A DNA stretch of 64,000 nt, from positions 21,581 to 85,580 of the forward strand of contig JACPZZ010000017.1 of the NCBI GenBank assembly GCA_016195275.1. Reading direction: 5' to 3'. Below, piece by piece: positions 7,890 to 56,630 of this stretch (its first letter is position 1; each line of letters begins with the position of its first letter). The notes under the pieces were generated by a model that made no database searches, was not told the DNA's origin, and was given only the letters and a program-made list of their open reading frames with translations. Made by a program: the position numbers and the translations under genes. This DNA is from Candidatus Aenigmatarchaeota archaeon. Lineage in GTDB: Archaea > Aenigmatarchaeota > Aenigmatarchaeia > JACPZZ01.

Positions 7890-8519
7890 ATGGCCGATGG
7901 AATTGTGAAATTGCTTGAATCCGTCAAAAATCCGGAACATCCTATGCTGAAGGTCATGAAAGCTGCCTGCGACAAGGCGAAACTCGCGGATAAAAACGGC
8001 AATTACAAGGTATACTCTGATGAAATCGGGGAAAAATATCCGCCGCATTTCAGCGCAACTATACAGAAACAAGGCGGTAAATATTCGTTCCTGGAAATAA
8101 AGAACATAAGCAACGGGGTCGTGTTTTCGGAAAAGGCTGCCCATAACATAATAATTTCCGAAATGGAACTGTCCAAATATCCGGACCAGATTCCGACAGA
8201 AGACGCTTTCAAAATAGCGCAAAAAATAACAACGCACGGGAAAATAATCCGCCTGGCAAAAGAGGACAGGCAAAAAGCCATGGAGAATGCAAAAAGGATC
8301 GTAGTTACGGAAAAATTGCCGGACATGCCAAAGGCTGTAAAGAATGAAATAATCAATGCAGCGCAATGGGATTTGCTGAGTGACGGCGCCAAATCCCTGA
8401 TAGCCGCGCAATGGGCAAGAAAAATCGGAGGAAAAACAATGGTCGTTGTCAACGACGATGAAACTACAGACAAGGAAAAATTGCGCGCTCTGATATTATA
8501 CATACAGAAGGAAGCCTGA
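7890..8519 (+). CDS. hypothetical protein
   Basis: 209-aa ORF with coding-like composition, no recognisable motif; stop overlaps start of next small ORF. Confidence 0.5.
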   Translation: MADGIVKLLESVKNPEHPMLKVMKAACDKAKLADKNGNYKVYSDEIGEKYPPHFSATIQKQGGKYSFLEIKNISNGVVFSEKAAHNIIISEMELSKYPDQIPTEDAFKIAQKITTHGKIIRLAKEDRQKAMENAKRIVVTEKLPDMPKAVKNEIINAAQWDLLSDGAKSLIAAQWARKIGGKTMVVVNDDETTDKEKLRALILYIQKEA

Positions 8520-8671
8520 TGAGGTCACTGAAACAAAACGATCGCATTGATGTGACCAGGGATTTTCGCAGAAGGGTTTGCCCGGAATGCGGATCCAACA
8601 AACTGATGGAAGACCCTTCGCACGGACGCGCCATGTGCGCAAAATGCGGGCATGTAATAAGGGAATAATAA
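8519..8671 (+). CDS. small zinc-ribbon protein (50 aa)
   Basis: ATG overlaps the upstream stop (TGATG); CPECGSNKL...CAKCGHV two CxxC pairs; below the ORF-track length cutoff. Confidence 0.4.
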
Positions 8672-12798: not shown

Positions 12799-12931
12799 GG
12801 TGGGGTTAGGGTGATTTGAACACCCATATGAAGCTCTTTCTAAACCTTTCTTTTTCCCTTGAGGCTTTTTCTTTGGAAAGAAAAAGGCTCACCCAAAGCT
12901 CCTATGCTAAACCAGGTTACATCATAACCCC
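12799..12931 (-). tRNA. tRNA-Pro(UGG) with 56-nt canonical-position intron
   Basis: Hand-folded: acceptor GGGGTTA/TAACCCC, D-stem ATGT/GCAT, anticodon stem GGAGC/GCTTC, loop TTTGGG|intron|A giving anticodon TGG, variable ATAT, T-arm GGGTG-TTCAAAT-CACCC, discriminator A then CC. Confidence 0.7.
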
Positions 12932-13957: not shown

Positions 13958-14398
13958 GTGATTCGGATGGTTGTGACGAAAGAAGAAACGGAAAATCTGG
14001 TCAAAGTCTTTATAGACATACACAATGACATACTTCAAGTAACAGGACAACGTTCTAACCCTGAATTGCACGAAGAAGTACCAGCTGGCGGAGAATCGGG
14101 TGTAAGAGATCCTGGAGGACTACATGTATTGGCTTACAAAATACTATCGTTAGAAAGCGATCCAACAAAAATAACAGCTGATGTAGCGACTGAAGCATTG
14201 TATGATATCGCAACAAAACACTACTTTTGGGACGGGAACAAAAGAACTGCATACGTAATTGCAAAAACCATATTGTTAAGGGAGGACATGGTCTTGCTGC
14301 CTATTTATAAAGATGCTCTCGAATTTATTATCAGGGTAGCTGACAAAAAGATTCCCAAAAAAGAAATAAAAACATGGATTGAAGGTATGATCTTGTAA
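13958..14398 (+). CDS. doc: Doc (death-on-curing) toxin, Fic/Doc family
   Basis: 146 aa; HYFWDGNKRTAYV Fic/Doc active-site motif (HxFxDGNKR); no obvious Phd antitoxin upstream. Confidence 0.75.
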   Translation: MIRMVVTKEETENLVKVFIDIHNDILQVTGQRSNPELHEEVPAGGESGVRDPGGLHVLAYKILSLESDPTKITADVATEALYDIATKHYFWDGNKRTAYVIAKTILLREDMVLLPIYKDALEFIIRVADKKIPKKEIKTWIEGMIL

Positions 14399-14678
14399 AA
14401 GGGTGTTAGGGTGACTATTAAAGACATTAAAAGATGGCGTCAACAAGCAAAGAAGGTTATAGAAGAAGATATAGAGCTACTCAGGGAACTGGCGAAACGT
14501 TGATATTAATTCTAGATAGCCTCAGGCGGGCTCGGGAGAACAGTCAATAACACCAACTGTTGGAATATTATTTTTTAACACGATATATTAGCTTTTACAA
14601 CTTACACACAATCCATATGCTTTGAATATGCGGCACTATCCAGCCTTTTGCATCGTCTTTGAATATTTGTTTCCTGTA

Positions 14679-15098
14679 TTAACCTTTCAACAAGCCCGTT
14701 TTAATTTCTTTAATTATTCTTTTGCACTTTTCTATTGCGTGCAAAGCAGTCTCAAAATCCATTCTTTTGCCATAATAGGTCAGAGAATTTCGTTTGTATC
14801 TTACATCGCCGAAAAGGACATACAAATCAGTTCTTTTGAGAACATCCCTGATATAATAGCCAAGGCATACGTGGTTGCTTATCTTGTAACCATTTGATAA
14901 AACAATTGCCTGCAACATTTCCATAATTGAAGTATAATAATCCTCGAAAACGAAATTGCAGTTTTTCTCGTTTATTTCGCTTGTTAGTTTTATCCTTTCG
15001 GCTGCGGTTTCAACCAATGATTTTGCTCTTGCTCTATCTGGAGAAATTTTTACCGCTGTGTTCCCCTCTACGCAGTCGTTCCACGAGCTTTCTTTCAT
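14679..15098 (-). CDS. HEPN-domain protein (toxin component of HEPN/MNT module)
   Basis: 139 aa; helical HEPN-like protein immediately downstream of and overlapping (4 nt) the MNT gene; R...H-type motif near the C-terminus. Confidence 0.65.
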   Translation of the reverse strand: MKESSWNDCVEGNTAVKISPDRARAKSLVETAAERIKLTSEINEKNCNFVFEDYYTSIMEMLQAIVLSNGYKISNHVCLGYYIRDVLKRTDLYVLFGDVRYKRNSLTYYGKRMDFETALHAIEKCKRIIKEIKTGLLKG

Positions 15099-15628
15099 TT
15101 GAACACCTCAATAAATCCATTAAGCACAATACCGTTTACTATGTTGTTCACCAAACCGGTGTTTCCTATCTCCCTGATATTTTTATGCCGAAAAACTTGT
15201 ATCTTTCTTTGCAGAATCTTTTCAAATTTCTCAACGTTAATGTTTTTTTTGGAAGGCGTTTCCAAGTATAAATCTATGTCGCTGTTTTCTGTATCCTCCC
15301 CTTTCGAGTAAGAACCGAACAAAATTATAGTCGGGTTGCTTAATTCGTCTCTCAGCCAATCAACAATTCCGGATGCATGGATCTGTTTTAGATTAAAAAG
15401 CTTTTTCTCCATCAAGAAGTCCTCGTTCGTCCTGTTGGAAGTGTAAAAGACGACGTCGCCCGTCTTTGTTGTCGTTAGTATCCCCTCTTCCTTCAAATCC
15501 TTGCAATATCTGATCACAGAAGGCAACGGCAGTTTCAGTGTTTTTTCTATCTGCCTTACCCTCAATTTAGAGCCCGGATTGATAAAAAAATAACCCCTGA
15601 TCGTTTCCTTGATATCTTTTCTTATCAT
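15095..15628 (-). CDS. minimal nucleotidyltransferase (MNT) with N-terminal wHTH (antitoxin component of HEPN/MNT module)
   Basis: 177 aa; LFGSYSKGEDTENSDIDL nucleotidyltransferase motif (GS...DxD); N-terminal winged-helix-like region. Confidence 0.75.
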   Translation of the reverse strand: MIRKDIKETIRGYFFINPGSKLRVRQIEKTLKLPLPSVIRYCKDLKEEGILTTTKTGDVVFYTSNRTNEDFLMEKKLFNLKQIHASGIVDWLRDELSNPTIILFGSYSKGEDTENSDIDLYLETPSKKNINVEKFEKILQRKIQVFRHKNIREIGNTGLVNNIVNGIVLNGFIEVFK

Positions 15629-15727: not shown

Positions 15728-15748
15728 TTCTTGAATAAGCCTCAGGCG
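15728..15748. repeat. attL: 21-bp direct repeat agcctcaggcgagaattgaac (copy of tRNA-Thr 3' end)
   Basis: Identical 21-mer occurs at 56631-56651, where it forms the T-loop/acceptor 3' end of tRNA-Thr. Confidence 0.75.
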
Positions 15749-15850
15749 AGAATTGAACAATTGTCTACCTTACGTGCGTACTTGCTTGAGCAAGTCGCGT
15801 AGGAGGCGAGGTAGAGTCATCATTCCTATTGGCGCTGTCGGCTCATAAGT

Positions 15851-16597
15851 TTGATGCTCAAACCCTTGCATCCACAAAGCGGCAATCGTCCAAGACCGGA
15901 AGCGACGCCTACCAGCCAGGTAGGAGATGACGGTTCGAATCCGCCTTGCCGCATTTCTCTGCGTCTCTGTTCTGACAGGCAGGACTTCGAGGCGTTCCGC
16001 TGGATCATCGACACGTACCACACTTACAAGCCTTGGAAGCCTTCTCCCGGCAGGAAGATCTGCTGGCTTATTGAACGCGAAGGCGAGACCATCGGCTCCA
16101 TCGCAGTCCATAGCGCCGTGCTCACAATCAAGCCGAGAGAAGACTTCATTGGATGGGACCAGAGACAAAAGCTTGTCAACTTGAACAAAGTAGCCAACAA
16201 CTATCGTTTTGCACTCATTGAGCGGGGCGTTGGCTCTCGTGTGCTATCCGAGCTGGAACGTGAGGCCAAACGGGAATGGAAACGGAAATACGGCGATCCG
16301 CTCGTCCTGTTGGAAACTTTTGTCCAGCCGCCCTATGAAGGCACATCGTACAAAGCCGCGAACTGGACCTACATCGGTATGACCAAGGGCTTTGCTGTGA
16401 GGCGCGCCCCCGTCTCATTGTGGAAACGCGCGGGGGGCGAGAGAAAGAAGTTGTGGGAGTCCGATCCACATGCTGCGGCGAAACTGTACGCGGGCTGGAA
16501 TGGCGGCCAGCTTGTCAAAGTCACTCCGACTCCGAAGAAGCACATCTTCGCGCGCCCGCTGCATCGGTATTGGAGACGAGAGTTGCTGCGCGTCTAA
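15851..16597 (+). CDS. hypothetical GNAT-like protein (possibly DUF4338-like), likely 5'-truncated or with mis-assigned start
   Basis: 248-aa ORF; ERGVGSRVLSELEREA resembles GNAT motif A (RxxGxG); the annotated N-terminus overlaps a tRNA-like sequence (15879-15953) and has no in-frame alternative start until far downstream. Confidence 0.4.
   Translation: MMLKPLHPQSGNRPRPEATPTSQVGDDGSNPPCRISLRLCSDRQDFEAFRWIIDTYHTYKPWKPSPGRKICWLIEREGETIGSIAVHSAVLTIKPREDFIGWDQRQKLVNLNKVANNYRFALIERGVGSRVLSELEREAKREWKRKYGDPLVLLETFVQPPYEGTSYKAANWTYIGMTKGFAVRRAPVSLWKRAGGERKKLWESDPHAAAKLYAGWNGGQLVKVTPTPKKHIFARPLHRYWRRELLRV
15879..15953 (+). other. degenerate tRNA-like sequence (Gly-GCC-like) just inside attL
   Basis: 7-bp perfect acceptor stem GCGGCAA/TTGCCGC, anticodon hairpin CCTAC-CAGCCAG-GTAGG, T-arm GACGG-TTCGAAT-CCGCC, discriminator A; mismatches in the D and T stems and A33 suggest a pseudo-tRNA or element-borne tRNA. 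Confidence 0.45.
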
Positions 16598-16962: not shown

Positions 16963-17334
16963 TCATGCCACTAATCTATTGATAATCTCTTCGAGGCCAT
17001 TTAGTCCAACTGGTTTCCTTAGCACATGATCGATCCCGGACTTTGAAAGCGCTTCATCGTCGAAGTCTATTAGCCATCCTGTGATCAAAACAATGGGAAG
17101 GTGAGGCATCGTCTCGTGGATTCTCGCAGCGCCCTCGATCCCGTTTTCTCCAGGGAGTCCAAAATTTATGACCACCAGGTCAAACCGCTCTTGTGAAAGC
17201 AGGGTGAAACCCTCATCGGTGTTATGGCACAGGGCAGCATAGGAACCCAAAGAACGAACAGCTTCGCACAGGGTCTCGCCTACTTCCTGGTTATCCTCTA
17301 TTACAAGTATTCTAGCTACCTGTCTGGAACCCAT
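16963..17334 (-). CDS. response regulator, stand-alone receiver (CheY-like) domain
   Basis: 123 aa; VIEDN, DLVVINFGLPGENG (phospho-Asp), VLITG, LRKP, the conserved REC residues; no output domain. Confidence 0.8.
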   Translation of the reverse strand: MGSRQVARILVIEDNQEVGETLCEAVRSLGSYAALCHNTDEGFTLLSQERFDLVVINFGLPGENGIEGAARIHETMPHLPIVLITGWLIDFDDEALSKSGIDHVLRKPVGLNGLEEIINRLVA

Positions 17335-17335
17335 G

Positions 17336-18178
17336 TCACTTGGGTATACAGCCAGATTCCTGGGCTAACGGCAGTGAGATCGTAAAGGCCGAGCCCTGGC
17401 CTGGCACGCTGTTTACCTCTATCTTGCCTCCAAACCTCTCCACCACTTCTCGTGCCAGTGTCAGCCCCAGACCTGTCCCCCGGTTTCCTTTGGTAGTGAA
17501 GAAGGGGTCAAAGATTTTATAGAGCAGCTCCTGGGGAATCCCTATGCCCGTGTCGGATACAACAATTCTCCTAACTGTGCCCCCTATTTCTGTGCTAATA
17601 GTGACGGTCCCCCCTTGGGATGTCAGCGCATCGAAAGCGTTCATGACGATGTTGGCCAAAGCGGTACGAAGTTCGGTTGCTTTCCCTTTTACCAGGCCCT
17701 GGCCTCCCAGGCTGACCTTTAGCTCAACGGGCCTACCCACCACCTCGGTCATCTCCTGGCGGTGAGGCTCGAAGAATTCAGCTACTTCCAGCACGAGCGA
17801 GTCCAGGTCAAGCAGCCCACCGGTCTCATCAAACCGGATATCACCGGATTGCCGCAAACGATTGACGACCTCTGCTGCGCCCAGGGTAGCAGTCCTCGCT
17901 AACTCAAGGTGCCGAAACTCTTTCCAGTCCAAATCGACTCCCATGGCCATGTCTATCCTGGCTAGTATGATGGTCAAGAGGTTATTTAGGTCATGGACTA
18001 CGCCATAGGATATATAGCCCAGATTATAGACTCGGTTTGCCTGTAAGAGTTCCCAGTATAAGGTATCCGAAATCGCTTGCTGTTGGTTCCACAACGATTC
18101 ACCGGGTTCAACGGTTTCCATGTGAATCTTCCCCGCGATGAACAAATTCCTGGCAGACGAACGATACCCAACAGCCAC
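17336..18178 (-). CDS. sensor histidine kinase (HisKA plus HATPase_c), soluble
   Basis: 280 aa; H-box VVHDLNNLL, N/G boxes (GTGLGLTLAREVVERFGGKIEV); no TM segments; 1-nt gap to the downstream receiver gene. Confidence 0.8.
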   Translation of the reverse strand: MAVGYRSSARNLFIAGKIHMETVEPGESLWNQQQAISDTLYWELLQANRVYNLGYISYGVVHDLNNLLTIILARIDMAMGVDLDWKEFRHLELARTATLGAAEVVNRLRQSGDIRFDETGGLLDLDSLVLEVAEFFEPHRQEMTEVVGRPVELKVSLGGQGLVKGKATELRTALANIVMNAFDALTSQGGTVTISTEIGGTVRRIVVSDTGIGIPQELLYKIFDPFFTTKGNRGTGLGLTLAREVVERFGGKIEVNSVPGQGSAFTISLPLAQESGCIPK

Positions 18179-18850
18179 CAGAGAACAGTGTCATGTCTCT
18201 AGACGACGATGTCCGTGGTGTTGGGTATGGGAGCACCAACCGAACCTTGTTATCACACTCCACGGGACCTATTTTACCCAGGGACGCCGGGCTTATCAGC
18301 ATGAGCCCATCATTGGCAATGATGACACTGGAGTTCAAAACCGTACTAACGGTCCCAACTCGACTCCTCAGCAATCTTAAGCCATTCGCGGTGACGCCGA
18401 ACAAGGTTAGGTACGCAAGGATTGACCCTTAGCAGCATTTCTACTGTGGATATACAACGTTCTCAGCAAAGACAACCGCCGTACCAGCAAGGGCTAGCAG
18501 AGCGGCAGTAGCGATGGCAATCCACTTTACGACAACCGGACGAACTTTGCGCATTTGGTTACACCTCCTAATGTTCTTAGGCAAAAACTAACAGGAGGCA
18601 GTAACCATTCGGTAACCAGGTTCAAAGGACAGTCGTGTGCGGAGAGGGCGCAGAATAGGGATTTAGCGGTCCAGACTGCGCCTTACGGTCTCCATAGGTG
18701 ACCACAGAGGCGGTTGGCAAAAAGGCAGGTGTCATGAAGCTCTACTATCTGATAACTGCCGCAAGGAGGAGACTGTGAAACGACCCAAGATAGATAGCCA
18801 AAGGAAATGAAAGTGGAGGATGTACAAGGAGGTCTGTGAACGCAGTCTAG

Positions 18851-21800
18851 CTACGCGGGTGGGGCTTTTGTTAATGCCTGATTGTAGAGGGACAGAAAAT
18901 GGGCTGGGACACTGATACCCAGCTCTGTACGGGCAGCCTTAATGTAGCGCTCCAGATATTTCAGTGATCCGAACCGGTCTCCTAATTTCAGACAAGTCTC
19001 TGCTAGTAGATAATTTGCTTCCTCATTATAGGGGTCCGACTCGACGAGCTTTTCCAGTACCTCAACAGATCGACCCAACTCACCTCTAGCGGTATAGTAT
19101 TTGGCAACGTTCATAAGTGCACGAATGTATTTTATCTCTAGAGAAGTACGTAAACTTTGACACCAGTCTGAGTAGAATTCATTCAGGAAAGGACCTATGT
19201 ACATCTCCATTGCCCTGAGCAGATTCTCCTCTTTGACAGGGCTTTCTTCCTCACATCGCTCAGCAGTCCTTAGGCTTTCTTCAAAGACCTCAAGGTCGAA
19301 ATCTACAGGGCTCTCGGGATTGAAGCAGTATCCATCACCTTTTGAGAGCACGCACCCTGGATAAAGAGCTTGTCTAAGGCGATAGATATTCATCTTTGAT
19401 GCAGCCGCAAAGTTCTCAAGGGTAACATCCGGCCATAGAGCTTCGATGATCTCCTCCTTGGTCACCACTCTTTTGGTACAAAGGAGAAAGTAGAAGAGTT
19501 CCTTGGCCTTGCGGCTTCTCCATTCGGAATCTGTTACCTCGTGTTTGCCCAGGAAAACACTGGCTTGCCCAAAGCTAAAGACCTTCAACGGAGGCAGCGA
19601 TCTCTGAGCAGGAGACGTAGTTCTGTCCGGCTCTGTCAGTTGTGCTCTTTCACTCATTCGTCTCGCTAGTCTCGTGAAAACTCCACCTGCCCCCTTTGCT
19701 GCACCGAATTGAACAAGCTCTGAAACCTGAGCACCATCTGCCAAAAGGAAACCCTCGTAACCGAGTCTTTGCGTGATGTGGTCAAGTTCTCGTAGGCAGA
19801 CTAGGGCTTCCCGAACTTGAGTCAGTTTATAAAAGACAAGTCCCTGGTGCAGTTTTGCCTCTGCCAGGCCCCTTTGACTTCCTACCTCACCGAACATCGC
19901 CTTTGCATCCCCTAGATGCTCTGTAGCCTCTTCAAACGAGCCCATCTGGCAATACACTTTGCCAAGCGAGAGGTGATAGCGAGCGCAGATGTATCTTTCC
20001 CCCGATTGCTCGGCATCGGGAATAGCTTGTTGTAATAACGCCTCAGCTTTGGATAACTCGCCTAAATCTCGATAAGTGTTTCCAAGGCCGTTCACAGCTT
20101 CAGCGATAAGTCGCTGGTCAAGAATGCTCCGGGCCATCTCTAGCCCTTCCAGGAGGCTCGTCAAGGCATCATGGTGGAGCCCGTTAGCTCTCTGCATGAT
20201 CCCTCTGGTGATCAGGACAAAAGCCTGCGTCCAACGTTCTCCAACGGCACGCGCTACTTTGAGAGCTTCGGTAATCTCATCGAGGGCAATATCGAAGTCC
20301 CCTAAATAGTAGTAGACATTGGCGAGGTTATTAAGGGTTAACGGCAAAGCGGTGTTGTTCTCCAGCTTCAACCAGCCCTGTCGTGCCTTCTCTAGATACA
20401 TAGATGCTTTATTCAGTTCTCCTGTCTCGATGTGTACAGCAGCTAGGCCATCATTTATCGTAGAAATGAGCGGCAGATTCTGCTGCGGAGCAATGTTTGA
20501 GGCCAACTCGAAATATTCTTTCGCTCGTTGAAATTCGCCTAGGCCAGCCAGGGCGCTGGCGAGCTGGCGATACGCTTCCGACAGATCCTCTGCCCTTGCA
20601 TTATGTGATCTCAGCACTGCGATGCCCTGCTCCGCTATTTTGACGGCAGCATCAAGCCTTCCCAGAGCCCTGGAAGCAGACGCCTTGTGGACCAGCACCC
20701 GTCCGGCGGTTGCCCAATCGTTTCCCTCTGCTATTGCAGTAGCTTTATCGAATTCTTCCATTGCCCGGGCAGGGTCGCCTGACCTGAGTAACACTGCCCC
20801 TCTAACCATCAGGATATGGGGGTCCCTCTCAGACAACTCGCGAGGAAGGAGATCTAGCCAGGCAGTCAGGGTCTGCCACTTTCGTTCCTGAAGGTATCTG
20901 TCAGCCACCTGTCTGATTATTTGGGCCGCCCCTTCTGCTTCGCCAGCCTTTGTCAGATGTCTGATAGCTGCATCGTGGTTTCCCACCTGCTGGAACAGGG
21001 AGCCTGCTCTCTGGTTAAACGCCTTATATGACTCAGGTTTCTCACTACTGAACTTCCTTTCCAGATATTCCCTGAAAAGGTCATGGTACCTGTAAACCGA
21101 GTCTTCACTGCCACGTTCCTCAAGGAACAGGCCTCTCTCTTTTATCTCGTGGATCAACTGACTGGAATGAGCTAGGTTAAGCAGATTGTCACAGAGCCTC
21201 ACACTGAACTCTTTCAGGATGGACGTTTGCAGAAGGAAAGATTTGAGACGTTCGGGAAGCCCATTGAAAACTTCCTGGGTCAAGTAATCGAAGAAGACAC
21301 TTTCATTGAGGCTGGCTAAAGTCGGCGATAGAGCGTCTCTTGAGCGTGTCCTGGCGGTCAGCAATACACCTGTGACCCAGCCACCAGTACGCGTGGCTAC
21401 TTCTTGAGCTTCTTCTGTTGGCACGGACCTTTCCCAGACACTGGATAGGGCTTCAGCGATTTCTTCCACAGAAAGGCGCAGAGTCTCGTTATCAAGCCAG
21501 GAGACGTCATCTTGGGCTACAAGTTTAGGTAGACAACTAATAGACGGCTTTGTTCTGCTTGCAATGAGGAAGTGGACATTGGACGGGGAACGCTCTATGA
21601 GTAAAGACAGAGCTTCTTTCAATGCTGACTTTGTATCTATGTGGTGTACGTCATCAAATATGAAGAGTAATTTGCCCTCAACCTTGTTATGAAACGCAGT
21701 TACCAGCAGGCCAACCAGGGTGCGCCAATCTGCCGTGGACGTTCGTATGAGCCAATTCACATCCCCTTTATTACCATCCTTAAACCGACTTTCAAGGGTT

Positions 21801-22057
21801 CTTACACAATATCGGAGAAACTCTAGAGGTTCATTGTCTTCAGGAGTAAAGGAGTACCAGCACACCGGAAAATCTGAATCTGAGATAAAGTCCACGAGTA
21901 GAGTTGTTTTTCCGTAGCCAGCAGGTGCCCAGAGAATCTGAACTCTTCTGTCGAGACCTGATTTTACAATATCAAGCGGCTTCGTCCGGCGGATAATACC
22001 TTCCCGCCGCTTCGGTATAAGGATCTTCGTGATGAACGGTAAATCAGTGGTTATCAA
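18851..22057 (-). CDS. MalT-like STAND ATPase - TPR repeats - C-terminal SARP module (OmpR-type wHTH plus BTAD)
   Basis: 1068 aa; N-terminal Walker A ILWAPAGYGKTTLL as in MalT/LAL regulators; extensive TPR-like helical repeats; C-terminal LKVFSFGQASVFLGKHEVTDSEW...LWPD (trans_reg_C) plus a BTAD-like helical tail. Confidence 0.75.
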   Translation of the reverse strand: MITTDLPFITKILIPKRREGIIRRTKPLDIVKSGLDRRVQILWAPAGYGKTTLLVDFISDSDFPVCWYSFTPEDNEPLEFLRYCVRTLESRFKDGNKGDVNWLIRTSTADWRTLVGLLVTAFHNKVEGKLLFIFDDVHHIDTKSALKEALSLLIERSPSNVHFLIASRTKPSISCLPKLVAQDDVSWLDNETLRLSVEEIAEALSSVWERSVPTEEAQEVATRTGGWVTGVLLTARTRSRDALSPTLASLNESVFFDYLTQEVFNGLPERLKSFLLQTSILKEFSVRLCDNLLNLAHSSQLIHEIKERGLFLEERGSEDSVYRYHDLFREYLERKFSSEKPESYKAFNQRAGSLFQQVGNHDAAIRHLTKAGEAEGAAQIIRQVADRYLQERKWQTLTAWLDLLPRELSERDPHILMVRGAVLLRSGDPARAMEEFDKATAIAEGNDWATAGRVLVHKASASRALGRLDAAVKIAEQGIAVLRSHNARAEDLSEAYRQLASALAGLGEFQRAKEYFELASNIAPQQNLPLISTINDGLAAVHIETGELNKASMYLEKARQGWLKLENNTALPLTLNNLANVYYYLGDFDIALDEITEALKVARAVGERWTQAFVLITRGIMQRANGLHHDALTSLLEGLEMARSILDQRLIAEAVNGLGNTYRDLGELSKAEALLQQAIPDAEQSGERYICARYHLSLGKVYCQMGSFEEATEHLGDAKAMFGEVGSQRGLAEAKLHQGLVFYKLTQVREALVCLRELDHITQRLGYEGFLLADGAQVSELVQFGAAKGAGGVFTRLARRMSERAQLTEPDRTTSPAQRSLPPLKVFSFGQASVFLGKHEVTDSEWRSRKAKELFYFLLCTKRVVTKEEIIEALWPDVTLENFAAASKMNIYRLRQALYPGCVLSKGDGYCFNPESPVDFDLEVFEESLRTAERCEEESPVKEENLLRAMEMYIGPFLNEFYSDWCQSLRTSLEIKYIRALMNVAKYYTARGELGRSVEVLEKLVESDPYNEEANYLLAETCLKLGDRFGSLKYLERYIKAARTELGISVPAHFLSLYNQALTKAPPA

Positions 22058-23286: not shown

Positions 23287-24996
23287 TTACCTGGCTGACA
23301 ACTTCAGCGGCAGGAAACTAACCGCATCACTCTTCACTTCAGTTAAAGTTGCGTCCATTCTATCAGGATAGTGTGAACTCAATTGATCCCTTGCCAATAT
23401 AGGCAGGATTGCTTCCAGCTCAACACTATCTCCATCTATCCAAACCTTAAGCTGGAGAGTTTCTAATAAAAGACGCCTGGCTTCAAAGCTGAATTCCTGC
23501 AATCTCCTTAACACCAGATTACAGAGTGATTTGATGCCTTCTTCGTCTAATTGCCATCGTCGCAGGTTCTTGAGACGTTGTTCAAACACCTCTTTCTCGC
23601 TGAGGAGGCGCTTGCGTTCAATTTCAATACTCGCTTTCTCTCTTTGCAGCAAGTCGTCATCGAATTCTCCAAACGAGTAAAGCCGTATTAGGCGTACCTC
23701 CCTATTGCGAAGCTTGTCAAGCATAGCATCAATTGTCTTGAGATCCTCTTCTGCTGAATCTCCGGACAAAAGGGTCTCCTGCCTTCTTCTTAGCAGCTCA
23801 TAGACAAAATCAGGGTTGGTCATGGCTTCTTCGAGTCGTTCCCAAACCAATCTCTCTAATCTTGCGGCACTATAGGTACGGTTCCTGCACTTTGTAGGGA
23901 AGTCGATGTGTTGTTTGGCTGCACAAGCATAGCTGGGAACCTTCTTCTTCGGCATTCCCCAATATCTTCTACCGCACCATTTACAGTATACGTAGCCGCT
24001 AAACAGGTATTGATGCTTGCTGTTTCTTTTGGCTAGTTCGCTATTCCTCTGAAGCTGCTTCTGGACACTGTTGAACAGTTCTTCAGTGATAATAGCTGGT
24101 GTTGCACCAGGAACTTCGATCCATTCGTCCCGCGGCCTCCAGGCCCTGCTGGTTAGTAGGCGCGAGGGATTTGACTTCAAACGCCTCTTTGGTTCTGCTG
24201 GCGTCATGGTGAATGCGTATGTCTTGCCTGTGTAAGCAGGGTTGGTGAGAACCCTGTGGACTGTGCTCTTTATCCATGTTTCCTTGCCTGAGGGACTTGG
24301 AATCCCAAGATCTCGTAGTCTCCGAACAATAGCGTTGAGAGTCAACCCTTCTTCCACAAGCCAACTGTATATTTTCTTCACGACCTCGGCGTTCTCTGGA
24401 ACGATTGCTCTGATTCCTTCTCCGTCTCCTCTGCCTGGAATATAGCGATACCCATAGGGAGAGGTATGTCCAGCGCTAGGGATTTTACCGCGCAAGGCCC
24501 GCATCTTCTTGCCGCGCGTTGTGCGCTCAAGGATTTTCTCCTTTTCTATCTGGGCAGCGTAGCCAATGACATAACGGATTAGCTGACCTTCAGGGGTATT
24601 ATCCAAAGGCTCAGTCACGAAGATCAACTCAACCTTTCTCTTTTCGCACTCCTCAGCAATGATAGCAATATGTATTGGATTCCTCGCCAGCCTGTCAGTG
24701 GAGTGTACAATGAACGCATCAATCTTCTTCTCCTTAAGAAGAAGGCGCGCGTGCATCAGTAATGGCCTGTCCAGGGTCGCGCCTGAATAATCCTCCTTAA
24801 AGATGAACTCGTCTGGGACCTCGTATCCTTTTGCCTTTGCCAGCGCCAAGCATCGCTCAAGCTGCGTCTCCAGGCTCGTGCCTTCTTCCTTTTGTCTCGT
24901 GGTGCTTACACGAGTGTAAATTGCCGCGGTTTTCATGCGTGCCTCCTTGCCGAAGTTCTCAATGGGTTTACTTCGGCTCTTGTTTTTCCAGATCAC
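23287..24996 (-). CDS. large serine recombinase (resolvase/invertase catalytic domain plus recombinase domain plus zinc ribbon plus coiled coil)
   Basis: 569 aa; N-terminal AAIYTRVSTTRQ catalytic-Ser motif; CKWCGRRY...CAAK zinc ribbon; long C-terminal coiled coil typical of large serine recombinases. Confidence 0.85.
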   Translation of the reverse strand: MIWKNKSRSKPIENFGKEARMKTAAIYTRVSTTRQKEEGTSLETQLERCLALAKAKGYEVPDEFIFKEDYSGATLDRPLLMHARLLLKEKKIDAFIVHSTDRLARNPIHIAIIAEECEKRKVELIFVTEPLDNTPEGQLIRYVIGYAAQIEKEKILERTTRGKKMRALRGKIPSAGHTSPYGYRYIPGRGDGEGIRAIVPENAEVVKKIYSWLVEEGLTLNAIVRRLRDLGIPSPSGKETWIKSTVHRVLTNPAYTGKTYAFTMTPAEPKRRLKSNPSRLLTSRAWRPRDEWIEVPGATPAIITEELFNSVQKQLQRNSELAKRNSKHQYLFSGYVYCKWCGRRYWGMPKKKVPSYACAAKQHIDFPTKCRNRTYSAARLERLVWERLEEAMTNPDFVYELLRRRQETLLSGDSAEEDLKTIDAMLDKLRNREVRLIRLYSFGEFDDDLLQREKASIEIERKRLLSEKEVFEQRLKNLRRWQLDEEGIKSLCNLVLRRLQEFSFEARRLLLETLQLKVWIDGDSVELEAILPILARDQLSSHYPDRMDATLTEVKSDAVSFLPLKLSAR

Positions 24997-32408: not shown

Positions 32409-35400
32409 ATGGCAAGCCAAGGTCGTCCTCACACCAGAGCTCCGTGGAAAGACAAGATCCTGATTTGGCAGGAATACTATAGGAACCGAGTCATTAAACG
32501 AGTGGCTGAGGACCTCAGCTTCCAAAAGGCGGATGGCGAATGGTATGGCTATAGCGAGGACACCGTAGCAAGAATAATCAAGGAGTTGGACTACATCTCC
32601 GAAGAAGATGCGGCGAGTCTGTCATCAGAGATTCAAGAACTCAGACGTAGCCGTACACAGGCACCAAACCAACAGGCGTCGCCACAACAAATCGGTCAAC
32701 AATCAGACTACAAAGTTGATTTGCAAGCACTCCGGCAGTCTTGTTCGGATGGGCTCAGGGCTCACCTTGATCGGCATTCGGTAGAGTTTAATAGCAAAAG
32801 CTACGTACCACGCGCCGCCATTGAAGGGGAATTCCGCGAGTTCTTAGATTCGACAAAGCTTTGTTTTCCCATCATTGGCGAAGCAGGCATGGGCAAGACA
32901 ACTTTGCTTTGCCATTTAGCAGACGAGTACTCGCATAGAACCGAACAGCACCCAGACCATTTAGTTTGGGTGTTGTCCGCGAGACCGCTGGCCAATATTC
33001 GCGATCACCCGTTGCGTACGGCGGTAGGCGAGGAAGCGACGGACGTGGGAGCTGCGATCAAGAGCCACCTCTCACGGCACCTCAGCATGGTCGATGTCAC
33101 TAAGAGATCAGAGGTTGACTTCACGGAGGTCGTGGAAGCTCTCTATCGTGAGTTAAGAGACACCGGCGACAAGAAGTTCATCGTGTTAATCGACGCGCTG
33201 AACGAACACCCCCAGGCTGACAAGCTAATTGCATCGCTGGACTCAGCGGTGGCAAGCCTCGCGGACCTCTCCGATGAACTCGATGGCCTCTCAAGGCGCT
33301 TCAAGATCTGTGTGACGTGCCGACCATATTCGTGGCACCGGGCTATCAGCGAAGAACTCCATAGCAGGATCAGGTATTCCCATTATCATGCCCTGCAAGA
33401 GCAGAACTTATTGCCCCAAGTGACTCTTGGAGAATACTCAGAGCAGGAGCTTCAAACGATTTACGAAGGGACAAAGGTTATCACAGACGATGGGAGACGA
33501 TCGGAGTTGCGCCCGGAGTTCACAGCCTTGAAAAGGGACGCCCCCAAGTGGATCAATCGACTATCCGACCCCTACCTGTTCGCCTGCGCGATAGAGGTGG
33601 CAAGGAAGAATGACGGTTATATCCCTCTAGGCTTAACCAAGGCTCAAATGCTGAGAGCCTATATCGACCGGCTGACCAACAATGACAAAGTAGCGCAGAG
33701 ACTCCTCGCGGAAATAACAGAGCGCATGCGGGTGACCATGAGTCCCCAACTGACTCGGCGCGAATTGGAGAGTTGCGCGCAAAGGCTCACCTTGGACCTC
33801 GATGCTCCTGACTCCCCCTATAACCGTCTGATAGATGCAGGAATTCTCCAAGAGTTGAACGATGCGACGAACGACCCGACCCAACTAGCGGTGGGTATCC
33901 GCAACGACCGCATCCTGGAGTACCTCTTGTATGAGCGTCTCAAGCTGCTTCAGCAAGATGTTACGCACATCCGCGATACGCTGATACAAGCGGAATTGTA
34001 CCCTCAGTTGTGGGCTGCCTTGCATACCCTATTCGTTGAAGACTGGGATCAAGCCACCGTTAGTCAACTGGCCGCCATCCGCAACGAGGACCAAACGGCC
34101 CCCGTCGTTGTTCGGGCCTTTATTCCAGGCGTATGTCGCGAAGTGTACAAAGACCGGCCGAAGGAGGTGAATGACCTCGTCCAGACTCTCTTGAAGTCGA
34201 GCGACAATGTGGCATTGATGATGGCAGTGGCGGTTGCCTATACTGTCAAGGACACGGACGGTCTGCTTCAAGCGTTGCAAAACAAGAGCTTAGTTGCACA
34301 GAGACTGGCCATCCAATACTCGTATCTTTTTTGGCGGGCTCACCGTAAGAATGGCTACGCCCTGTTAAACAGATTAAGTGACCGAATATCCGTGGCACCT
34401 GATAGGAAAACAATCCAAGCGTTCGTTGACCTTAGCGTGGCGATCGGAACCAAGCATTTTCGACAACCAGAAATCCGAGAGGAAATTATTGCACTGGCAC
34501 AACGCACGGCTCACGGGTTGATGCACCCCGATCTGAGGAAATCCGGGTTGAATCCCGCCCAGAGGATGAAGAGGCGAGCCGCTAGCTTAATCCTTCGAGC
34601 ATCAACGTCGTTTGCCGGTGGTCCTCTCGTCAATGCAGCGGCTGTTTACTTGGAGAAAACGCTCCGTGTCGCCGAGGACAACAACACCATAGGTAACTAT
34701 TCGGACGTAGCCGCCTTCTTCAAACACGTGCCGCCCCGCGATAGACACCCATATAAAGTGCTGTTGAATTTTTGGGGGCCAGAAGAAGCCAATCTCGTTA
34801 AATTGCGAAACATCATTTGTGATTTGGCGCACAGGCAAGATGGTGTGTTCTACTCCCTCGCAGCCGGGGCTTTGGTCATCCAAGCCTACTATCGACCCGA
34901 AGCTGCACTCAAGATGTTCAATGAGGTTTACGATAGTGCCGAGCAGAATGCGCTTCAAAAACGGCTGGTGCTACGGGCGTCCGATGTCTTGTCTCCACTG
35001 GCCAGCGGAAAGCATCTGAACTCCCAACTCCGGTCCCACAGCGACCTAGTCCGGAGGTTCATCGATGAAACAGCAGGCCGGTGCACCGTGGCAGGCCACA
35101 ATCGGACCATGTGCGGAGTACCGCTTTATCACACTTCGTTAGTAGAAGTTTCTTCACGCGGTAGCTTGACTATCCTGCCCGACGCTATTACTAAAGCTCT
35201 GGTACGGAATGACCCCGAGCTGCTCGTGTCATTAGCTGAAGTTATTAACCAAATGGTCTGGTATATTGAGCCAGAACGCGTCCTCTCACTCAGGGAGTCA
35301 CTGCTTTGGCTACTCGCTTACGGGGACAATCCCCAAGGGAACGTGTACCAAGCTGCGCTGCGCACCGTTGCCACCTTAGCTCTGATATATCCGGATGCAG

Positions 35401-35675
35401 GTGAAGACGTCATTGCAGCAATCGCCAACAAAGAGGAACGGCAACGAGTCAGGAGCGGACTCAAACGCATTGCGGCGGACGAATTGGTCACCCCCGTGAG
35501 CGTTTACTTGGGCGGGATGCACGATGCGGGCATATATACGCTGCTTTCGTCTGACGGTGACGCAGTACGACGATTAGTCGTCGAGATATTGAACGCCGGA
35601 TTGAACGAGAAAACCGTACATGGTCTCATGCGGCTAGTTGCGCGTAGGAGCCTTAAACTATTGCAAGCTACGTAG
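32409..35675 (+). CDS. NACHT-like STAND NTPase with long C-terminal HEAT/ARM-like helical repeat region
   Basis: 1088 aa; about 150-aa N-terminal region, Walker A CFPIIGEAGMGKTTLLCHL, Walker B FIVLIDALNE; more than 600 aa of helical repeats. Confidence 0.75.
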   Translation: MASQGRPHTRAPWKDKILIWQEYYRNRVIKRVAEDLSFQKADGEWYGYSEDTVARIIKELDYISEEDAASLSSEIQELRRSRTQAPNQQASPQQIGQQSDYKVDLQALRQSCSDGLRAHLDRHSVEFNSKSYVPRAAIEGEFREFLDSTKLCFPIIGEAGMGKTTLLCHLADEYSHRTEQHPDHLVWVLSARPLANIRDHPLRTAVGEEATDVGAAIKSHLSRHLSMVDVTKRSEVDFTEVVEALYRELRDTGDKKFIVLIDALNEHPQADKLIASLDSAVASLADLSDELDGLSRRFKICVTCRPYSWHRAISEELHSRIRYSHYHALQEQNLLPQVTLGEYSEQELQTIYEGTKVITDDGRRSELRPEFTALKRDAPKWINRLSDPYLFACAIEVARKNDGYIPLGLTKAQMLRAYIDRLTNNDKVAQRLLAEITERMRVTMSPQLTRRELESCAQRLTLDLDAPDSPYNRLIDAGILQELNDATNDPTQLAVGIRNDRILEYLLYERLKLLQQDVTHIRDTLIQAELYPQLWAALHTLFVEDWDQATVSQLAAIRNEDQTAPVVVRAFIPGVCREVYKDRPKEVNDLVQTLLKSSDNVALMMAVAVAYTVKDTDGLLQALQNKSLVAQRLAIQYSYLFWRAHRKNGYALLNRLSDRISVAPDRKTIQAFVDLSVAIGTKHFRQPEIREEIIALAQRTAHGLMHPDLRKSGLNPAQRMKRRAASLILRASTSFAGGPLVNAAAVYLEKTLRVAEDNNTIGNYSDVAAFFKHVPPRDRHPYKVLLNFWGPEEANLVKLRNIICDLAHRQDGVFYSLAAGALVIQAYYRPEAALKMFNEVYDSAEQNALQKRLVLRASDVLSPLASGKHLNSQLRSHSDLVRRFIDETAGRCTVAGHNRTMCGVPLYHTSLVEVSSRGSLTILPDAITKALVRNDPELLVSLAEVINQMVWYIEPERVLSLRESLLWLLAYGDNPQGNVYQAALRTVATLALIYPDAGEDVIAAIANKEERQRVRSGLKRIAADELVTPVSVYLGGMHDAGIYTLLSSDGDAVRRLVVEILNAGLNEKTVHGLMRLVARRSLKLLQAT

Positions 35676-39264: not shown

Positions 39265-40769
39265 GCCTGTAAACACGACTTGGAGGGTTATTGCCTGGGA
39301 AGGTTCAAAGGGTGAAAATGATAGGCATCAGTGAAGGAGAGGGAAGGTGTGACTCATGCTCCCCATTGTGGAAGTCCCAGAGTCCATCCGACGTGGTATG
39401 GAGCGCTACCGCTCCATTTTCTGCCGCCAGGAAGGCTTCGACCATGTCTGCCGCTATGTCACAGGTTTGATAGTCTTACCCAATAAAACCCTCCAGGGCA
39501 TCCATGACCTCCAGGTCTGGGAGGACCACACCCCCAGTAGAAGGTCTATGCATGAAGCAGTTTTCGAGGCCCACTGGGATGACGATCAATTGATGAAGGA
39601 TCATCGCAAGGCAGTGAGCCAGGACCACCATGGGCTGGGACGTGAGGTGATCGGTCTGGATTGGACTTTCTCTCATCATGAGCGGGGGCCAAAAATATAC
39701 GCCACCACTCGGGCCTGGGACTACGTGAATAACCTCTATAGCAGGTTCCAGACGGTAGTCACCGCTTCCATTGCCAACCGCCAGCTCATCGATGGCCTTG
39801 AGGTGAAGGTCCAAGAGCCTAAGCTCTGGAAGAAGGAGCTAGAGGCCCTCAAAGTCACTGCCCAGGAGGACTACAACCAGTTGGAAGATGCACGCAGCCG
39901 GCTACTGGAACTCCTGAGGTATCGGCTACATAGGAAACAGTATCGTAAGAGGACAGAGATAGCAGTGGAGATAGCAAAACAGATAGAGGAAGAAGGCCAC
40001 TTCCCCCAGGCCAGCTATGCCTTTGATAGTGCAGTGCTGACCCCGGAGTTGGCACGGCTGATAGAAGGAGCTGGCAAGCACTGGGTGAGTGAACTTCAGA
40101 GCAACCGTCAGATCCAATGGCGTGGCGAGTGGAAGCGGGTGGATGAGGTGGATAAGGAGCTGAGGGAGCAGCACCCTGAGAGCTTCAGGGAGGTAAGGGC
40201 TCGCTGCCGTAATGGAGAGGAAAAGACCCACTTTGCCTTTACCAAGGTAGTGCGCCTGAGAAGGTATGGACGCAAGCGGTTGGTGATAGTCCATGAAAAG
40301 GAAGATTTGAAAGACGAGCCTCGCTTCTTGCTCACCGATGCCCTTCATTGGGAAAGCAAGCGGGTGATAGAGAACTGGAACTTTCGCTGGCCTATAGAGG
40401 TCTTTCATGAGTTCAGCAAGCAGGTGACGGGGCTGGAGTCGGCTCAGGTACGCAAGGAGGAAGCGGTTAAACGCCACTTCCGATTGAGTTGTGTAGCGCA
40501 GTCGCTGGTACAGCGGGCACCTGTGAGTGGGACGACATCGGAAAGATTTGCCTTTGTGACAAACCAGCAAGGGAGCATAGGTCAGCGGTGCAGGAGCATC
40601 ATGCGAGAAGTGTTGAAGGGAGTGTTACAGCTTGCGAAGAACCTGTTTGAGCAAGGGCGCTCATGTGATGAGGTGCTGGAGGTGCTGATGCCAGCCTGAT
40701 GAGTAGTAGCACAGATATTCTCAAAATTAATCAACCCTCCAAGTCGTGTGTAAACAGGGAGCTAGAGAT
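39265..40769. mobile_element. insertion sequence (about 1.5 kb) with about 24-bp imperfect terminal inverted repeats, IS4/IS701-like
   Basis: IRL cctgtaaacacgacttggagggtt (39265-39288) versus the reverse complement of IRR aaccctccaagtcgtgtgtaaacaggg (40743-40769): 16/16 core identity plus flanking matches; single transposase ORF inside. Confidence 0.65.
39356..40699 (+). CDS. DDE transposase (IS4/IS701-like)
   Basis: 447 aa; layout and segments (VIGLDWTFSHHERGPKIYATT..., ...LTDALHWESKRVIENWNFRWPIEVFHEFSKQ) reminiscent of IS701/IS4-family transposases; bounded by IRs. Confidence 0.6.
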   Translation: MLPIVEVPESIRRGMERYRSIFCRQEGFDHVCRYVTGLIVLPNKTLQGIHDLQVWEDHTPSRRSMHEAVFEAHWDDDQLMKDHRKAVSQDHHGLGREVIGLDWTFSHHERGPKIYATTRAWDYVNNLYSRFQTVVTASIANRQLIDGLEVKVQEPKLWKKELEALKVTAQEDYNQLEDARSRLLELLRYRLHRKQYRKRTEIAVEIAKQIEEEGHFPQASYAFDSAVLTPELARLIEGAGKHWVSELQSNRQIQWRGEWKRVDEVDKELREQHPESFREVRARCRNGEEKTHFAFTKVVRLRRYGRKRLVIVHEKEDLKDEPRFLLTDALHWESKRVIENWNFRWPIEVFHEFSKQVTGLESAQVRKEEAVKRHFRLSCVAQSLVQRAPVSGTTSERFAFVTNQQGSIGQRCRSIMREVLKGVLQLAKNLFEQGRSCDEVLEVLMPA

Positions 40770-40983: not shown

Positions 40984-41664
40984 GTGATTGTCATGAAATT
41001 GAGGCAGTTTTACGAGGATTTGCAGGACAGATGGGCAGGCAGCCTGGTCAAAGTTCAGTATTTGGACCATCCTCACGCCAAGGAATACATGTACCGGTTA
41101 GCTAGAGAAGGCTTGGTGGAAAATGTTGCATGGGGCTGGTACTGGGTGCCAGCTCAGTTGGAAGATGTTTGGGACTTTCTCGCCAACGATAAAAACTTCA
41201 AAGTGATTGCTGGCCAGACTGCTGCCTCTCTCTGGAATGGAGACTTTGTTCACCGCGAGCTCTATCTGGTAAAGGTTAAGGATCGCTCTTACGGCCAAGC
41301 ATTAAAGGCCTTTGGTGAAGGAAAGGGCTGGGACCTTGAGGTAGAAGTAGCCCGCAAACCTCCAGCCTACACCAAGATTGACGGCCTGCTGGTCGAGACC
41401 ATCGACGAGACTATCCTGGACTGCCTGAGCAGGTGGGCTTTTCTGGATGCCTTTGCCATTCTGCATGAACATCCGGAGATAGATTTCAGAACAGTGGCAA
41501 AACAGGGCTACTGGCAACGCTTGCCCGGCACACACATCAGGCTGAAACCGGTGCTGGAATACGGGTATTCCAGACTCACAGGACGCAAGAGTAGACCGCT
41601 GGCAGACCCATTCGTGGCGAGGGAAGTGGAAGAAGCGGTGGAAAAGGTGATGGAGATTGGCTAG
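40984..41664 (+). CDS. AbiEi-like antitoxin / transcriptional regulator (type IV TA, abortive infection)
   Basis: 226 aa; N-terminal wHTH-like region; immediately upstream of, and overlapping (8 nt), an AbiEii-type nucleotidyltransferase. Confidence 0.55.
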   Translation: MIVMKLRQFYEDLQDRWAGSLVKVQYLDHPHAKEYMYRLAREGLVENVAWGWYWVPAQLEDVWDFLANDKNFKVIAGQTAASLWNGDFVHRELYLVKVKDRSYGQALKAFGEGKGWDLEVEVARKPPAYTKIDGLLVETIDETILDCLSRWAFLDAFAILHEHPEIDFRTVAKQGYWQRLPGTHIRLKPVLEYGYSRLTGRKSRPLADPFVAREVEEAVEKVMEIG

Positions 41665-56582: not shown

Positions 56583-56630
56583 GCAATTACATGGGTCAGT
56601 CTGCTAATAAAAGATATACACTTGTTCAAA

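Follow-up and report, generated by a model that had tools for sequence, protein, structure and literature searches.

A 64,000-nucleotide stretch of Candidatus Aenigmatarchaeota archaeon DNA (contig JACPZZ010000017.1 of assembly GCA_016195275.1, positions 21,581 to 85,580; hereafter the window) carries, at the left end of a 40.9-kb integrated element, a Chloroflexota-type cassette whose core is a large transcriptional regulator and the small peptide gene that follows it. The regulator joins a MalT-type signal transduction ATPase with numerous domains (STAND) and a tetratricopeptide repeat (TPR) array to a C-terminal Streptomyces antibiotic regulatory protein (SARP) module, and the peptide gene is preceded by a direct-repeat box of SARP-type geometry. 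We propose that the two genes form a pair with auto-inducing peptide sensing, a reading to which we give an even chance; its points of interest are the peptide gene, the cognate SARP box and the inter-domain location of the cassette. An earlier note, made from the letters of this DNA, had singled out three minus-strand open reading frames (ORFs), namely the regulator, a histidine kinase and a stand-alone receiver, and all three exist where it placed them.

The regulator is a 1068-residue protein encoded at 18851-22057 on the minus strand, and its domains were assigned from Pfam, NCBIfam, a family profile built from 18 members and searched against the PDB, and an AlphaFold model (64 homologues, pLDDT 87.6, pTM 0.61). 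In the model, a nucleotide-binding oligomerization domain (NOD; residues 25-240, nt 21985-21338) is followed by an arm/winged-helix domain (WHD; residues 245-340), a TPR sensor of 24 helices and ~470 residues (residues 341-808, nt 21037-19634), and a SARP module (residues 823-1063, nt 19591-18869) consisting of a winged helix-turn-helix (wHTH, 823-915) and a BTAD domain (918-1063); a disordered linker is listed between the TPR array and the wHTH. Residues 10-420 match the MalT model NF003420 of NCBIfam (E 1.7e-69), the family profile aligns residues 10-414 to MalT (8bob, E 1.6e-81), WHD_MalT is annotated among the precomputed domains, and TPR_MalT and TPR_12 both score above threshold in Pfam. 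The NOD and arm/WHD, with Walker A (APAGYGKT) and Walker B (FIFDD) motifs and an additional YRYHDLF motif, are those of MalT and the large ATP-binding regulators of the LuxR family (LAL), whose GerE, LuxR-type C-terminal HTH nevertheless had no match in the regulator in the Pfam scan. At the C-terminus, BTAD lies above the Pfam cut-off (residues 920-1059, E 1.6e-12), whereas Trans_reg_C stays below it when the single sequence is used (20 vs 26.2 bits) and the wHTH is recovered by the family profile, which equates residues 823-1069 with residues 40-286 of the AfsR SARP module (E 7e-40) and also finds EmbR (1e-12). The earlier reading of the protein as a MalT-type STAND, TPR and C-terminal SARP fusion thus stands, as NF003420, TPR_MalT, BTAD, the family profile and the model all agree. 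An OmpR-type wHTH followed by BTAD, modelled as a beta-strand plus three-helix wHTH and a helical BTAD, is the arrangement of the SARP family, but the module sits at the C-terminus (823-1063 of 1068) and not at the N-terminus, where every characterised SARP, small or large, has it. No RRNPP family is among the Pfam or NCBIfam matches of the regulator, and a Foldseek comparison of the model returned MalT at the top, the archaeal protein PH0952 second (6mfv, E 1.4e-14), and then peptide-binding TPR proteins.

This architecture, which had been taken to be unusual, turns out to be common: a search of 5.8 billion proteins at E<=1e-10 gave 566 homologues, and most of the best 120 of them are 1050-1110 aa long and carry WHD_MalT, TPR_MalT and BTAD. 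Such proteins already bear the names 'MalT / DNA-binding SARP family' at JGI and 'BTAD domain-containing putative transcriptional regulator' at NCBI, and in its domain fusion the window protein is unexceptional within this family, which is large and as yet uncharacterised. Its closest relative is 47% identical, full-length relatives range from 23 to 47%, and all family-invariant columns are kept in its intact 3.2-kb ORF. Among genome loci drawn from GTDB with one genome per species (individual loci are denoted by L numbers below), the 80 best are all bacterial and almost all from Chloroflexota (Anaerolineae, Dehalococcoidia, Ktedonobacteria and Chloroflexia), the window's own copy, labelled Candidatus Aenigmarchaeota at NCBI, being the only archaeal one seen among the best matches. 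The earlier judgement that such content is unusual for an archaeal element is therefore correct.

The small ORF of 37 codons lies at 18441-18554 on the minus strand, beginning 297 nt after the regulator stop codon, and is called as a gene on Logan contigs (full entry: MRKVRPVVVKWIAIATAALLALAGTAVVFAENVVYPQ). Its product, MRKVRPVVVKWIAIATAALLALAGTAVVFA followed by ENVVYPQ, looks like a Sec signal peptide with a short tail: its n-region has a charge of +4 and leads into a hydrophobic core, Gly occupies position -6 and V-F-A positions -3 to -1, and the tail comprises 7 residues; a Shine-Dalgarno (SD) sequence, AGGAGG, is found at 18564-18569 (minus strand), 9 nt upstream of the ATG. A resemblance among the ORFs that follow three close homologues prompted a scan of all retrieved loci for signal-peptide-like ORFs of 18-75 aa on the sense strand and <=500 nt downstream. 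Such ORFs occur in 20/67 GTDB loci (30%) vs 1-8% in eight control regions (antisense, further downstream or upstream), and a looser filter with SD-guided starts yields candidates in ~30 loci, some of them with tandem pairs or triplets. Almost every homologous small ORF has a comparable SD site in front of it, and for the products neither Pfam nor NCBIfam has a family match.

The pattern is most regular in the window's own branch, defined as the eight loci closely related to the window regulator that have enough downstream sequence (the window, L012, L083, L084, L085, L088, L089 and L090): the peptide gene is found in 8/8, and a clear repeat box precedes it in 7/8. In L012 the peptide ORF is present and the repeat is weak (GTAACC/GTTACC, 5/8 positions), and in L083 an insertion sequence has entered between the promoter and the peptide gene. 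In an alignment, the peptides of this branch share a basic n-region of charge +3 or +4 that leads into a hydrophobic core, with P, G or N as the helix breaker at -6 ahead of an A-x-A motif, after which the tails are short and highly variable (ENVVYPQ, EYTSYP, DGGGSSSD, DGGSISE, GADYSD, GGDASNSD, DNWGLP and EGDWG); another branch has QSPFF, QSPLF, QSPLI and QSPFL tails in tandem genes. Tandem peptide genes were seen in L004 (9515-9839, QSPFF/QSPLF), L037 (9680-9919, QSPLI/QSPFL) and L038 (9326-9660, tails identical), the tails of the first two pairs differing slightly; the duplications recall those of pheromone propeptides. Two loci of the window's branch show disrupted arrangements: the insertion sequence of L083 (homologue P0010, 11198-13019), which has a DDE_5/DDE_Tnp_1 transposase, separates the TGGTGACC repeat box from the peptide gene and so uncouples both, and in L090 (homologue P0005, ~8430-8545) the peptide ORF is frameshifted, reading MRSPKPSS and a stop before continuing in another frame as ALALAPTLIALAGGDASNSD, which makes it a pseudogene or an assembly error. 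As a separate observation, Opp-type oligopeptide ABC transporter genes (oligo_HPY ATPases and an OppC_N permease) are encoded on the strand opposite to the regulator and 6-9 kb upstream of it in L039, L042, L043, L047, L078 and L079; no peptide gene was detected in these loci.

On the minus strand, the heptamers GGTTACC (18617-18611) and GGTTACT (18606-18600) form direct repeats with an 11-nt period, a candidate SARP box (18600-18617) placed 46 nt upstream of the peptide ATG, and the hexamer TAGTTT (18585-18590), which resembles a -10 element, follows the heptamer repeat by 9 nt, or by 8 nt if the repeat is read as TGGTTACYG. According to published work on AfsR (PMC10936776), the direct repeats of SARP targets are spaced by 11 or 22 bp, and 8 bp separate the 3' repeat from the -10 element; this promoter geometry is apparent in the window and in most homologous loci with a peptide gene. 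Among the 29 loci with a peptide gene, 17 have a repeat box upstream of it (8-mers that agree at >=7/8 positions, recur after 11 or 12 nt and lie <=140 nt before the ATG), vs 2.0±1.3 in shuffles (maximum 6 in 200) and 2-3 loci in three kinds of real control region. The spacing profile peaks sharply at 11 nt (15 loci vs 2.8 expected), and TAnnnT occurs 9-12 nt after the 8-mer window in 11/17 of the box-bearing loci. In the window's subfamily, for which the consensus is TGGTGACC, the box consists of TGGTGACC twice in four loci, TTCGTCAC twice in one and TGGTTACY twice in the window, and is usually located just past the intrinsic terminator of the regulator gene. The residues of the recognition helix that precede a conserved YRLR vary together with the box (LKTN with TGGTGACC, SKMN with TGGTTACC, LRFKN with TTGAAGCC and AFHSN with CG(G)CGAGA), a co-variation consistent with cognate recognition. 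We conclude that the peptide promoter is a direct target of the regulator, whose binding we infer from these sequence patterns.

The earlier note had expected targets in direct-repeat-rich regions across the island; however, the exact pattern GGTTAC-N5-GGTTAC has a single copy in the 64-kb window, directly downstream of the regulator and before the small ORF, and the further copies amount to two 2-mismatch matches, which is the chance level, so that island-wide regulation is not supported. Across 16.8-22.5 kb, promoter-like sites were no more frequent than in shuffles, and a terminator scan of this region detected none from the peptide gene to the kinase, an outcome compatible with either joint or separate transcription of the two.

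Behind the peptide gene, clustering of neighbouring genes in the homologous loci reveals a recurrent same-strand block, whose members are DUF5317, which is a membrane protein (PF17248, E 2.5e-34), a protein of ~100 aa whose similarity to Frankia_peptide stays below threshold and which is in some loci fused to Peptidase_M78, and a GAF plus HD-GYP protein (HD_5, E 8.6e-36). In the 64 loci with >=2.5 kb of downstream sequence, the sense strand holds HD-GYP in 22/64, DUF5317 in 18/64, the ~100-aa protein in 22/64 and a kinase in 4/64, vs 0-1 in upstream or antisense controls. The ~100-aa protein is fused to, or stands before, an ImmA/IrrE-type Peptidase_M78 in L052 (7044-7943), L027 (8418-9302) and L029 (10319-11155). 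In the window, the 729-nt interval between regulator and kinase, which the earlier note had described as immediate neighbours, contains, in addition to the small ORF, a probable degenerate DUF5317 remnant at 18111-18428 (minus strand). It is the best window match to a hidden Markov model of the syntenic DUF5317 genes (E 8e-4), falls below the Pfam cut-off for DUF5317 (E 0.031, 14.7 bits, cut-off 25), has lost the N-terminal helices and the C-terminal part so that the core motif VLNSSVIIANDGLMLISPASL alone is recognisable, and by its position fits the order peptide, DUF5317, output seen in relatives.

The histidine kinase (261 aa, 17336-18121, minus strand; the longest ORF starts from GTG 18178 and encodes 280 aa) is a sensor-less cytoplasmic enzyme with HATPase_c at E 1.3e-26 in Pfam and NCBIfam alignments over residues 43-274; its H, N, G1, F and G2 boxes are all kept (VVHDLNNLL, DTGIG, FDPFFTTK, GTGLGL), and domain scans revealed no sensor domain or transmembrane segment. 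The stand-alone receiver (123 aa, 16963-17334, minus strand; Response_reg E 2.8e-16) is indeed separated from it by 1 nt, as had been reported. This receiver keeps both acidic residues, E13 and D14, as well as the conserved Thr and Lys, but its Asn57 aligns with the phospho-acceptor Asp of FleR, DrrD, 3rqi, CheY (D57) and Spo0F (D54), which removes the central step of a phosphorelay to the regulator; the earlier suggestion that the phosphorylated receiver modulates the regulator is accordingly not supported. The closest homologue, in L086, has Asp at this position and the receiver of L005 has Asn. In L005 (9205-9750) the stand-alone receiver with Asn at the phospho-acceptor position closes a regulator-peptide-DUF5317 operon, and its Asn indicates that the Asp-less state may be a recurrent feature and not decay. 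Judged by its residues, the window receiver cannot undergo conventional phosphorylation and would be either a functional Asp-less receiver or a product of decay.

Comparison with relatives places the kinase and receiver within the same recurrent arrangement. The HD-GYP place is taken in L065 by a 238-aa sensor-less kinase that shares the H-box HDLNNLL with the window, in L006 by a PAS-kinase-receiver hybrid, and in L089 by a PAS protein and a hybrid kinase. The closest homologue of the window kinase, P0122 (47% identity), lies on a 1.5-kb contig in the order DUF5317 C-terminal fragment (Pfam E 5e-7), kinase, stand-alone receiver, which is the arrangement of L086; its other homologues are <=40% identical and come from many bacterial phyla, so that this single relative on a short contig does not allow a donor lineage to be resolved for the kinase. 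An assignment of kinase and receiver as unlinked to the homologues, obtained with single-sequence phmmer, was dropped when a recurrence, weak yet genuine, emerged from neighbour clustering and from the closest homologue of the kinase; phmmer neighbour searches overlook divergent kinases and did not recover, for instance, the NarL-type pairs located upstream in L084. Most likely, judging from gene order, the window kinase and receiver descend from an operon of regulator, peptide, DUF5317, kinase and receiver. The kinase is one of the less frequent outputs placed after the promoter that the regulator targets, and it is not conserved as a partner. The earlier view of regulator, kinase and receiver as a unit thus keeps its weaker sense of a probable single gene cluster, given the L086 arrangement and the kinases behind regulator and peptide gene in L006, L065 and L089, and loses the stronger one, as the kinase and receiver are absent from most loci and HD-GYP is found in 22/64.

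The cassette resides in an archaeal island, as the earlier note had supposed. A 22-bp direct repeat, AAGCCTCAGGCGAGAATTGAAC, marks the left end at 15737-15758 (attL-like, at a GC shift near ~15.7 kb), and recurs at 56629-56650 (attR-like), where it overlaps the 3' end of a tRNA-Gly(TCC) gene (56630-56732, minus strand, Rfam 52.9 bits) beside which lies a tyrosine integrase (55383-56582, minus strand, Phage_integrase E 4.5e-22). The 40.9 kb between the repeats have a GC content of 50-59% vs ~45% outside (50-53% in the cassette itself), and repeats at a tRNA end, an adjacent tyrosine integrase and an archaeal host together characterise a tRNA-integrated archaeal mobile element. The host is identified by the flanking PurD, 60-68% identical to that of several independent Aenigmatarchaeota metagenome-assembled genomes and <=51% to anything else, and is further supported by an intron-bearing tRNA-Pro(TGG) in the flank (12799-12931, minus strand, 56-nt intron, found by ARAGORN in intron mode only). 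Two Orc1/Cdc6-like AAA+ genes with Cdc6_lid inside the element (43969-45015, minus strand; 53719-54714, plus strand) suggest a replicon derived from an archaeal plasmid or virus. We considered an assembly chimera and rejected it: at either end of the element the boundary to host sequence bears the matching 22-bp repeat, and the left junction and the cassette are also covered by an independent Logan assembly, so that the latter cassette is bacterial-type cargo in an archaeal element. Transfer of the cassette from Chloroflexota to the archaeon is likely. A large serine recombinase (Resolvase, Recombinase and Zn_ribbon_recom; 23287-24996, minus strand), ~1.2 kb from the regulator start, might have brought in the bacterial cassette as an insertion nested within the archaeal element; a divergent 168-aa ORF lies between the two genes.

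The other contents of the element are diverse. A second large STAND NTPase (1088 aa, 32409-35675, plus strand) is NACHT/NB-ARC-like, has no relation to the MalT-type regulator, and may act as a sensor in defence. The cargo further includes a PNP_UDP_1 phosphorylase-domain protein (420 aa, 49110-50372, minus strand), an AbiEii/DUF6036 nucleotidyltransferase (41657-42394, plus strand), an N6/N4 DNA methylase (51506-52852, minus strand) and a DDE transposase (39356-40699, plus strand), which lend the element a defence-island flavour, and a DruA-like ORF (PF14236, E 2e-15; 15851-16597, plus strand) lies just inside attL, overlapped by a weak tRNA-Gly(GCC)-like match (15879-15953, plus strand, Rfam 35.6 bits). 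Just outside attL, a toxin-antitoxin-like cluster (13958-15628, GC ~40%) comprises a Fic-domain ORF (13958-14398, plus strand) and an NTP_transf_2 gene (15095-15628, minus strand) that overlaps its 139-aa partner (14679-15098, minus strand) by 4 nt.

In the mechanism that we favour, the STAND switch would govern the access of a SARP dimer to the repeat box; the peptide would be exported and cleaved after the A-x-A motif, and its released tail of 5-8 residues would be sensed directly by the TPR array after re-import. Such tail sensing could close an auto-inducing loop akin to RRNPP quorum sensing, here built on a STAND/NLR-like receiver. The genes behind the peptide make up a variable output block: usually DUF5317, the ~100-aa protein and a GAF-HD-GYP phosphodiesterase, and in a minority of cases a kinase with or without a receiver. 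The window has the version with a kinase, in which DUF5317 is decayed and the receiver lacks the Asp. Several observations weigh against this proposal, in which the peptide is the putative ligand of the regulator. The hydrophobic cores of 14-22 residues are also compatible with a membrane anchor, and the Anaerolineae tails are fairly conserved (GAGAPxDGGG) with a Pro after the small residues, a poor fit with cleavage and ligand diversification. A peptide gene turned up in no more than roughly one third to one half of the loci, the window holds no Opp transporter, and Opp genes are nearby in only ~8 loci. The TPR array is not more divergent than the other domains within the window's subfamily (mean identity 0.50 vs 0.46-0.54, a comparison that is in itself uninformative), and the co-variation of recognition helix and box follows phylogeny and is thus not independent evidence. 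In addition, a sigma70-dependent activator should not work in an archaeon, and two parts of the cassette look compromised, namely the truncated DUF5317 and the receiver with its D to N exchange.

The most direct competitor accepts the promoter but not the sensing: the peptide gene may be a mere target, as in AfsR-AfsS, with the regulator responding to an unrelated ligand, either a metabolite or a protein, and inducing a small membrane protein that acts together with DUF5317 and the HD-GYP or kinase output. The SARP-box promoter is evidence of regulation of the peptide gene, not of peptide sensing; AfsR likewise switches on a small downstream gene through an 11-bp repeat box, and the ligand of MalT is a sugar. 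The peptide gene abuts DUF5317 in ~18 loci, and the conserved, Gly-rich Anaerolineae tails and long hydrophobic cores speak for this reading as well. Yet the window's branch often does without DUF5317 and keeps the peptide, its A-x-A motif is conserved ahead of tails that are very short and vary strongly, the tail is also where tandem paralogues differ, and TPR arrays are typical peptide binders, as are the structural matches after MalT and PH0952; we regard a target-only role as somewhat improbable. A different objection concerns the present host, where the cassette could be inert, decaying cargo from a Chloroflexota donor. SARP activation needs contacts with the bacterial sigma70 RNA polymerase, so the cassette is probably inactive in this way in the archaeon, and the damaged DUF5317 and receiver, the GC content of 50-53% vs ~45% in the host flanks and the absence of another archaeal homologue among the best matches all point in the same direction. 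However, the 3.2-kb regulator ORF is intact with every family-invariant residue kept, box, -10 element, SD site and peptide ORF are likewise intact, and the Asn of the receiver is shared by the bacterial relative L005. We treat loss of function as a serious possibility without favouring it; as auto-inducing peptide sensing describes the ancestral mechanism, the two are compatible.

Two further explanations seem to us far less probable. Under the first, very unlikely in our estimation, the kinase phosphorylates the stand-alone receiver, which in turn modulates the STAND/SARP regulator, the three proteins making up one unit. In its favour, the three genes are neighbours on one strand, L006, L065 and L089 likewise have kinases downstream of the homologue, and a homologous kinase-receiver pair follows DUF5317 in L086; but the phospho-acceptor position is Asn, most loci lack both genes and use HD-GYP as the usual output, the regulator shows no recognisable receiver-docking feature, and the position of the kinase downstream of the regulator's own target promoter suggests an output rather than an input. 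Defence is the other candidate: the STAND protein would be an Avs-like invader sensor that induces a small membrane-damaging peptide and abortive infection. Small hydrophobic peptides can act as toxins, STAND-TPR sensors of phage proteins are already known, and defence-type genes abound in the island (the NACHT STAND, AbiEii, DruA-like, PNP_UDP_1 and methylase genes), whereas the Chloroflexota homologues lie in varied housekeeping contexts and not in defence islands, the output of the regulator is a transcription module, and its conserved downstream partners are signalling enzymes, HD-GYP or kinase. Such a role is highly improbable.

Searches of the literature on DUF5317, Franean1_4349, STAND/SARP peptide signalling and BTAD in Chloroflexi returned no description of this family. 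RRNPP_detector covers only receptors of 250-500 aa in Firmicutes and viruses (PMC10075063), and could therefore not have found it. Quorum sensing by peptides and cytoplasmic receptors is regarded as a speciality of Bacillota, and the auto-inducing pair, if real, would extend its logic to another phylum and receptor class, in hundreds of Chloroflexota genomes, and give a large family of uncharacterised regulators its first ligand hypothesis. In its boldest and more doubtful form, the proposal is that of a first peptide-pheromone system on a STAND (NLR-like) receptor, in which a secreted peptide of 5-8 residues, freed by signal peptidase from a precursor of 30-50 aa, would activate a MalT-type ATPase whose SARP module drives the pheromone promoter together with HD-GYP or phosphorelay outputs, widespread in filamentous Chloroflexota and caught here after transfer into a DPANN element. 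A link between the regulator and cyclic di-GMP turnover could bear on the multicellular behaviour of filamentous, mat-forming bacteria. As box and recognition helix are predicted for each species, the promoter rule renders the hypothesis directly testable. The occurrence of a Chloroflexota signalling cassette in a tRNA-integrated Aenigmatarchaeota element is moreover a clean example of bacterium-to-DPANN gene flow via a mobile element.

Among known systems, the RRNPP or RRNPPA pairs (Rap-Phr, PlcR-PapR, NprR-NprX and AimR-AimP) are similar in gene layout, with a cytoplasmic TPR protein beside a small gene for what would here be a Sec-type propeptide with a short variable tail, tandem propeptide paralogues, and control of the peptide-gene promoter by the regulator, which would permit feedback. 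Their receptors differ in having 250-500 aa without an NTPase (PMC10075063), where the window regulator has 1068 aa with a STAND ATPase, in carrying an N-terminal HTH in place of the SARP module, and in belonging to Bacillota hosts, not Chloroflexota; no homology of the regulator to RRNPP families was detected. PH0952, an archaeal STAND protein with a TPR sensor (6mfv), shares the NOD-plus-TPR layout but is of another family without a SARP module, and the window regulator groups with Chloroflexota and not with archaeal proteins. MalT and the LAL proteins have a homologous N-terminal NOD, arm/WHD and helical-repeat sensor, and by analogy with them an ATP- and ligand-dependent switch would be expected in the window regulator; they end, however, in a LuxR-type C-terminal HTH where the latter has wHTH and BTAD, and the window regulator has no sugar genes nearby and belongs to a family with a conserved adjacent peptide gene. 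AfsR, finally, is an actinomycetotal protein with its SARP module at the N-terminus and a NOD of NB-ARC/AfsR type, as opposed to the C-terminal module and MalT-type NOD of the Chloroflexota family, and AfsS is a soluble protein of 63 aa where the window's target encodes a signal-peptide-like hydrophobic peptide. AfsR nevertheless combines the same three components, a wHTH plus BTAD SARP module, a STAND NOD and a TPR array, and the AfsR/afsS pair mirrors that of the window both in its 11-bp-period direct repeats, which overlap the -35 region near a -10 element, and in having as its target a small gene that adjoins the regulator.

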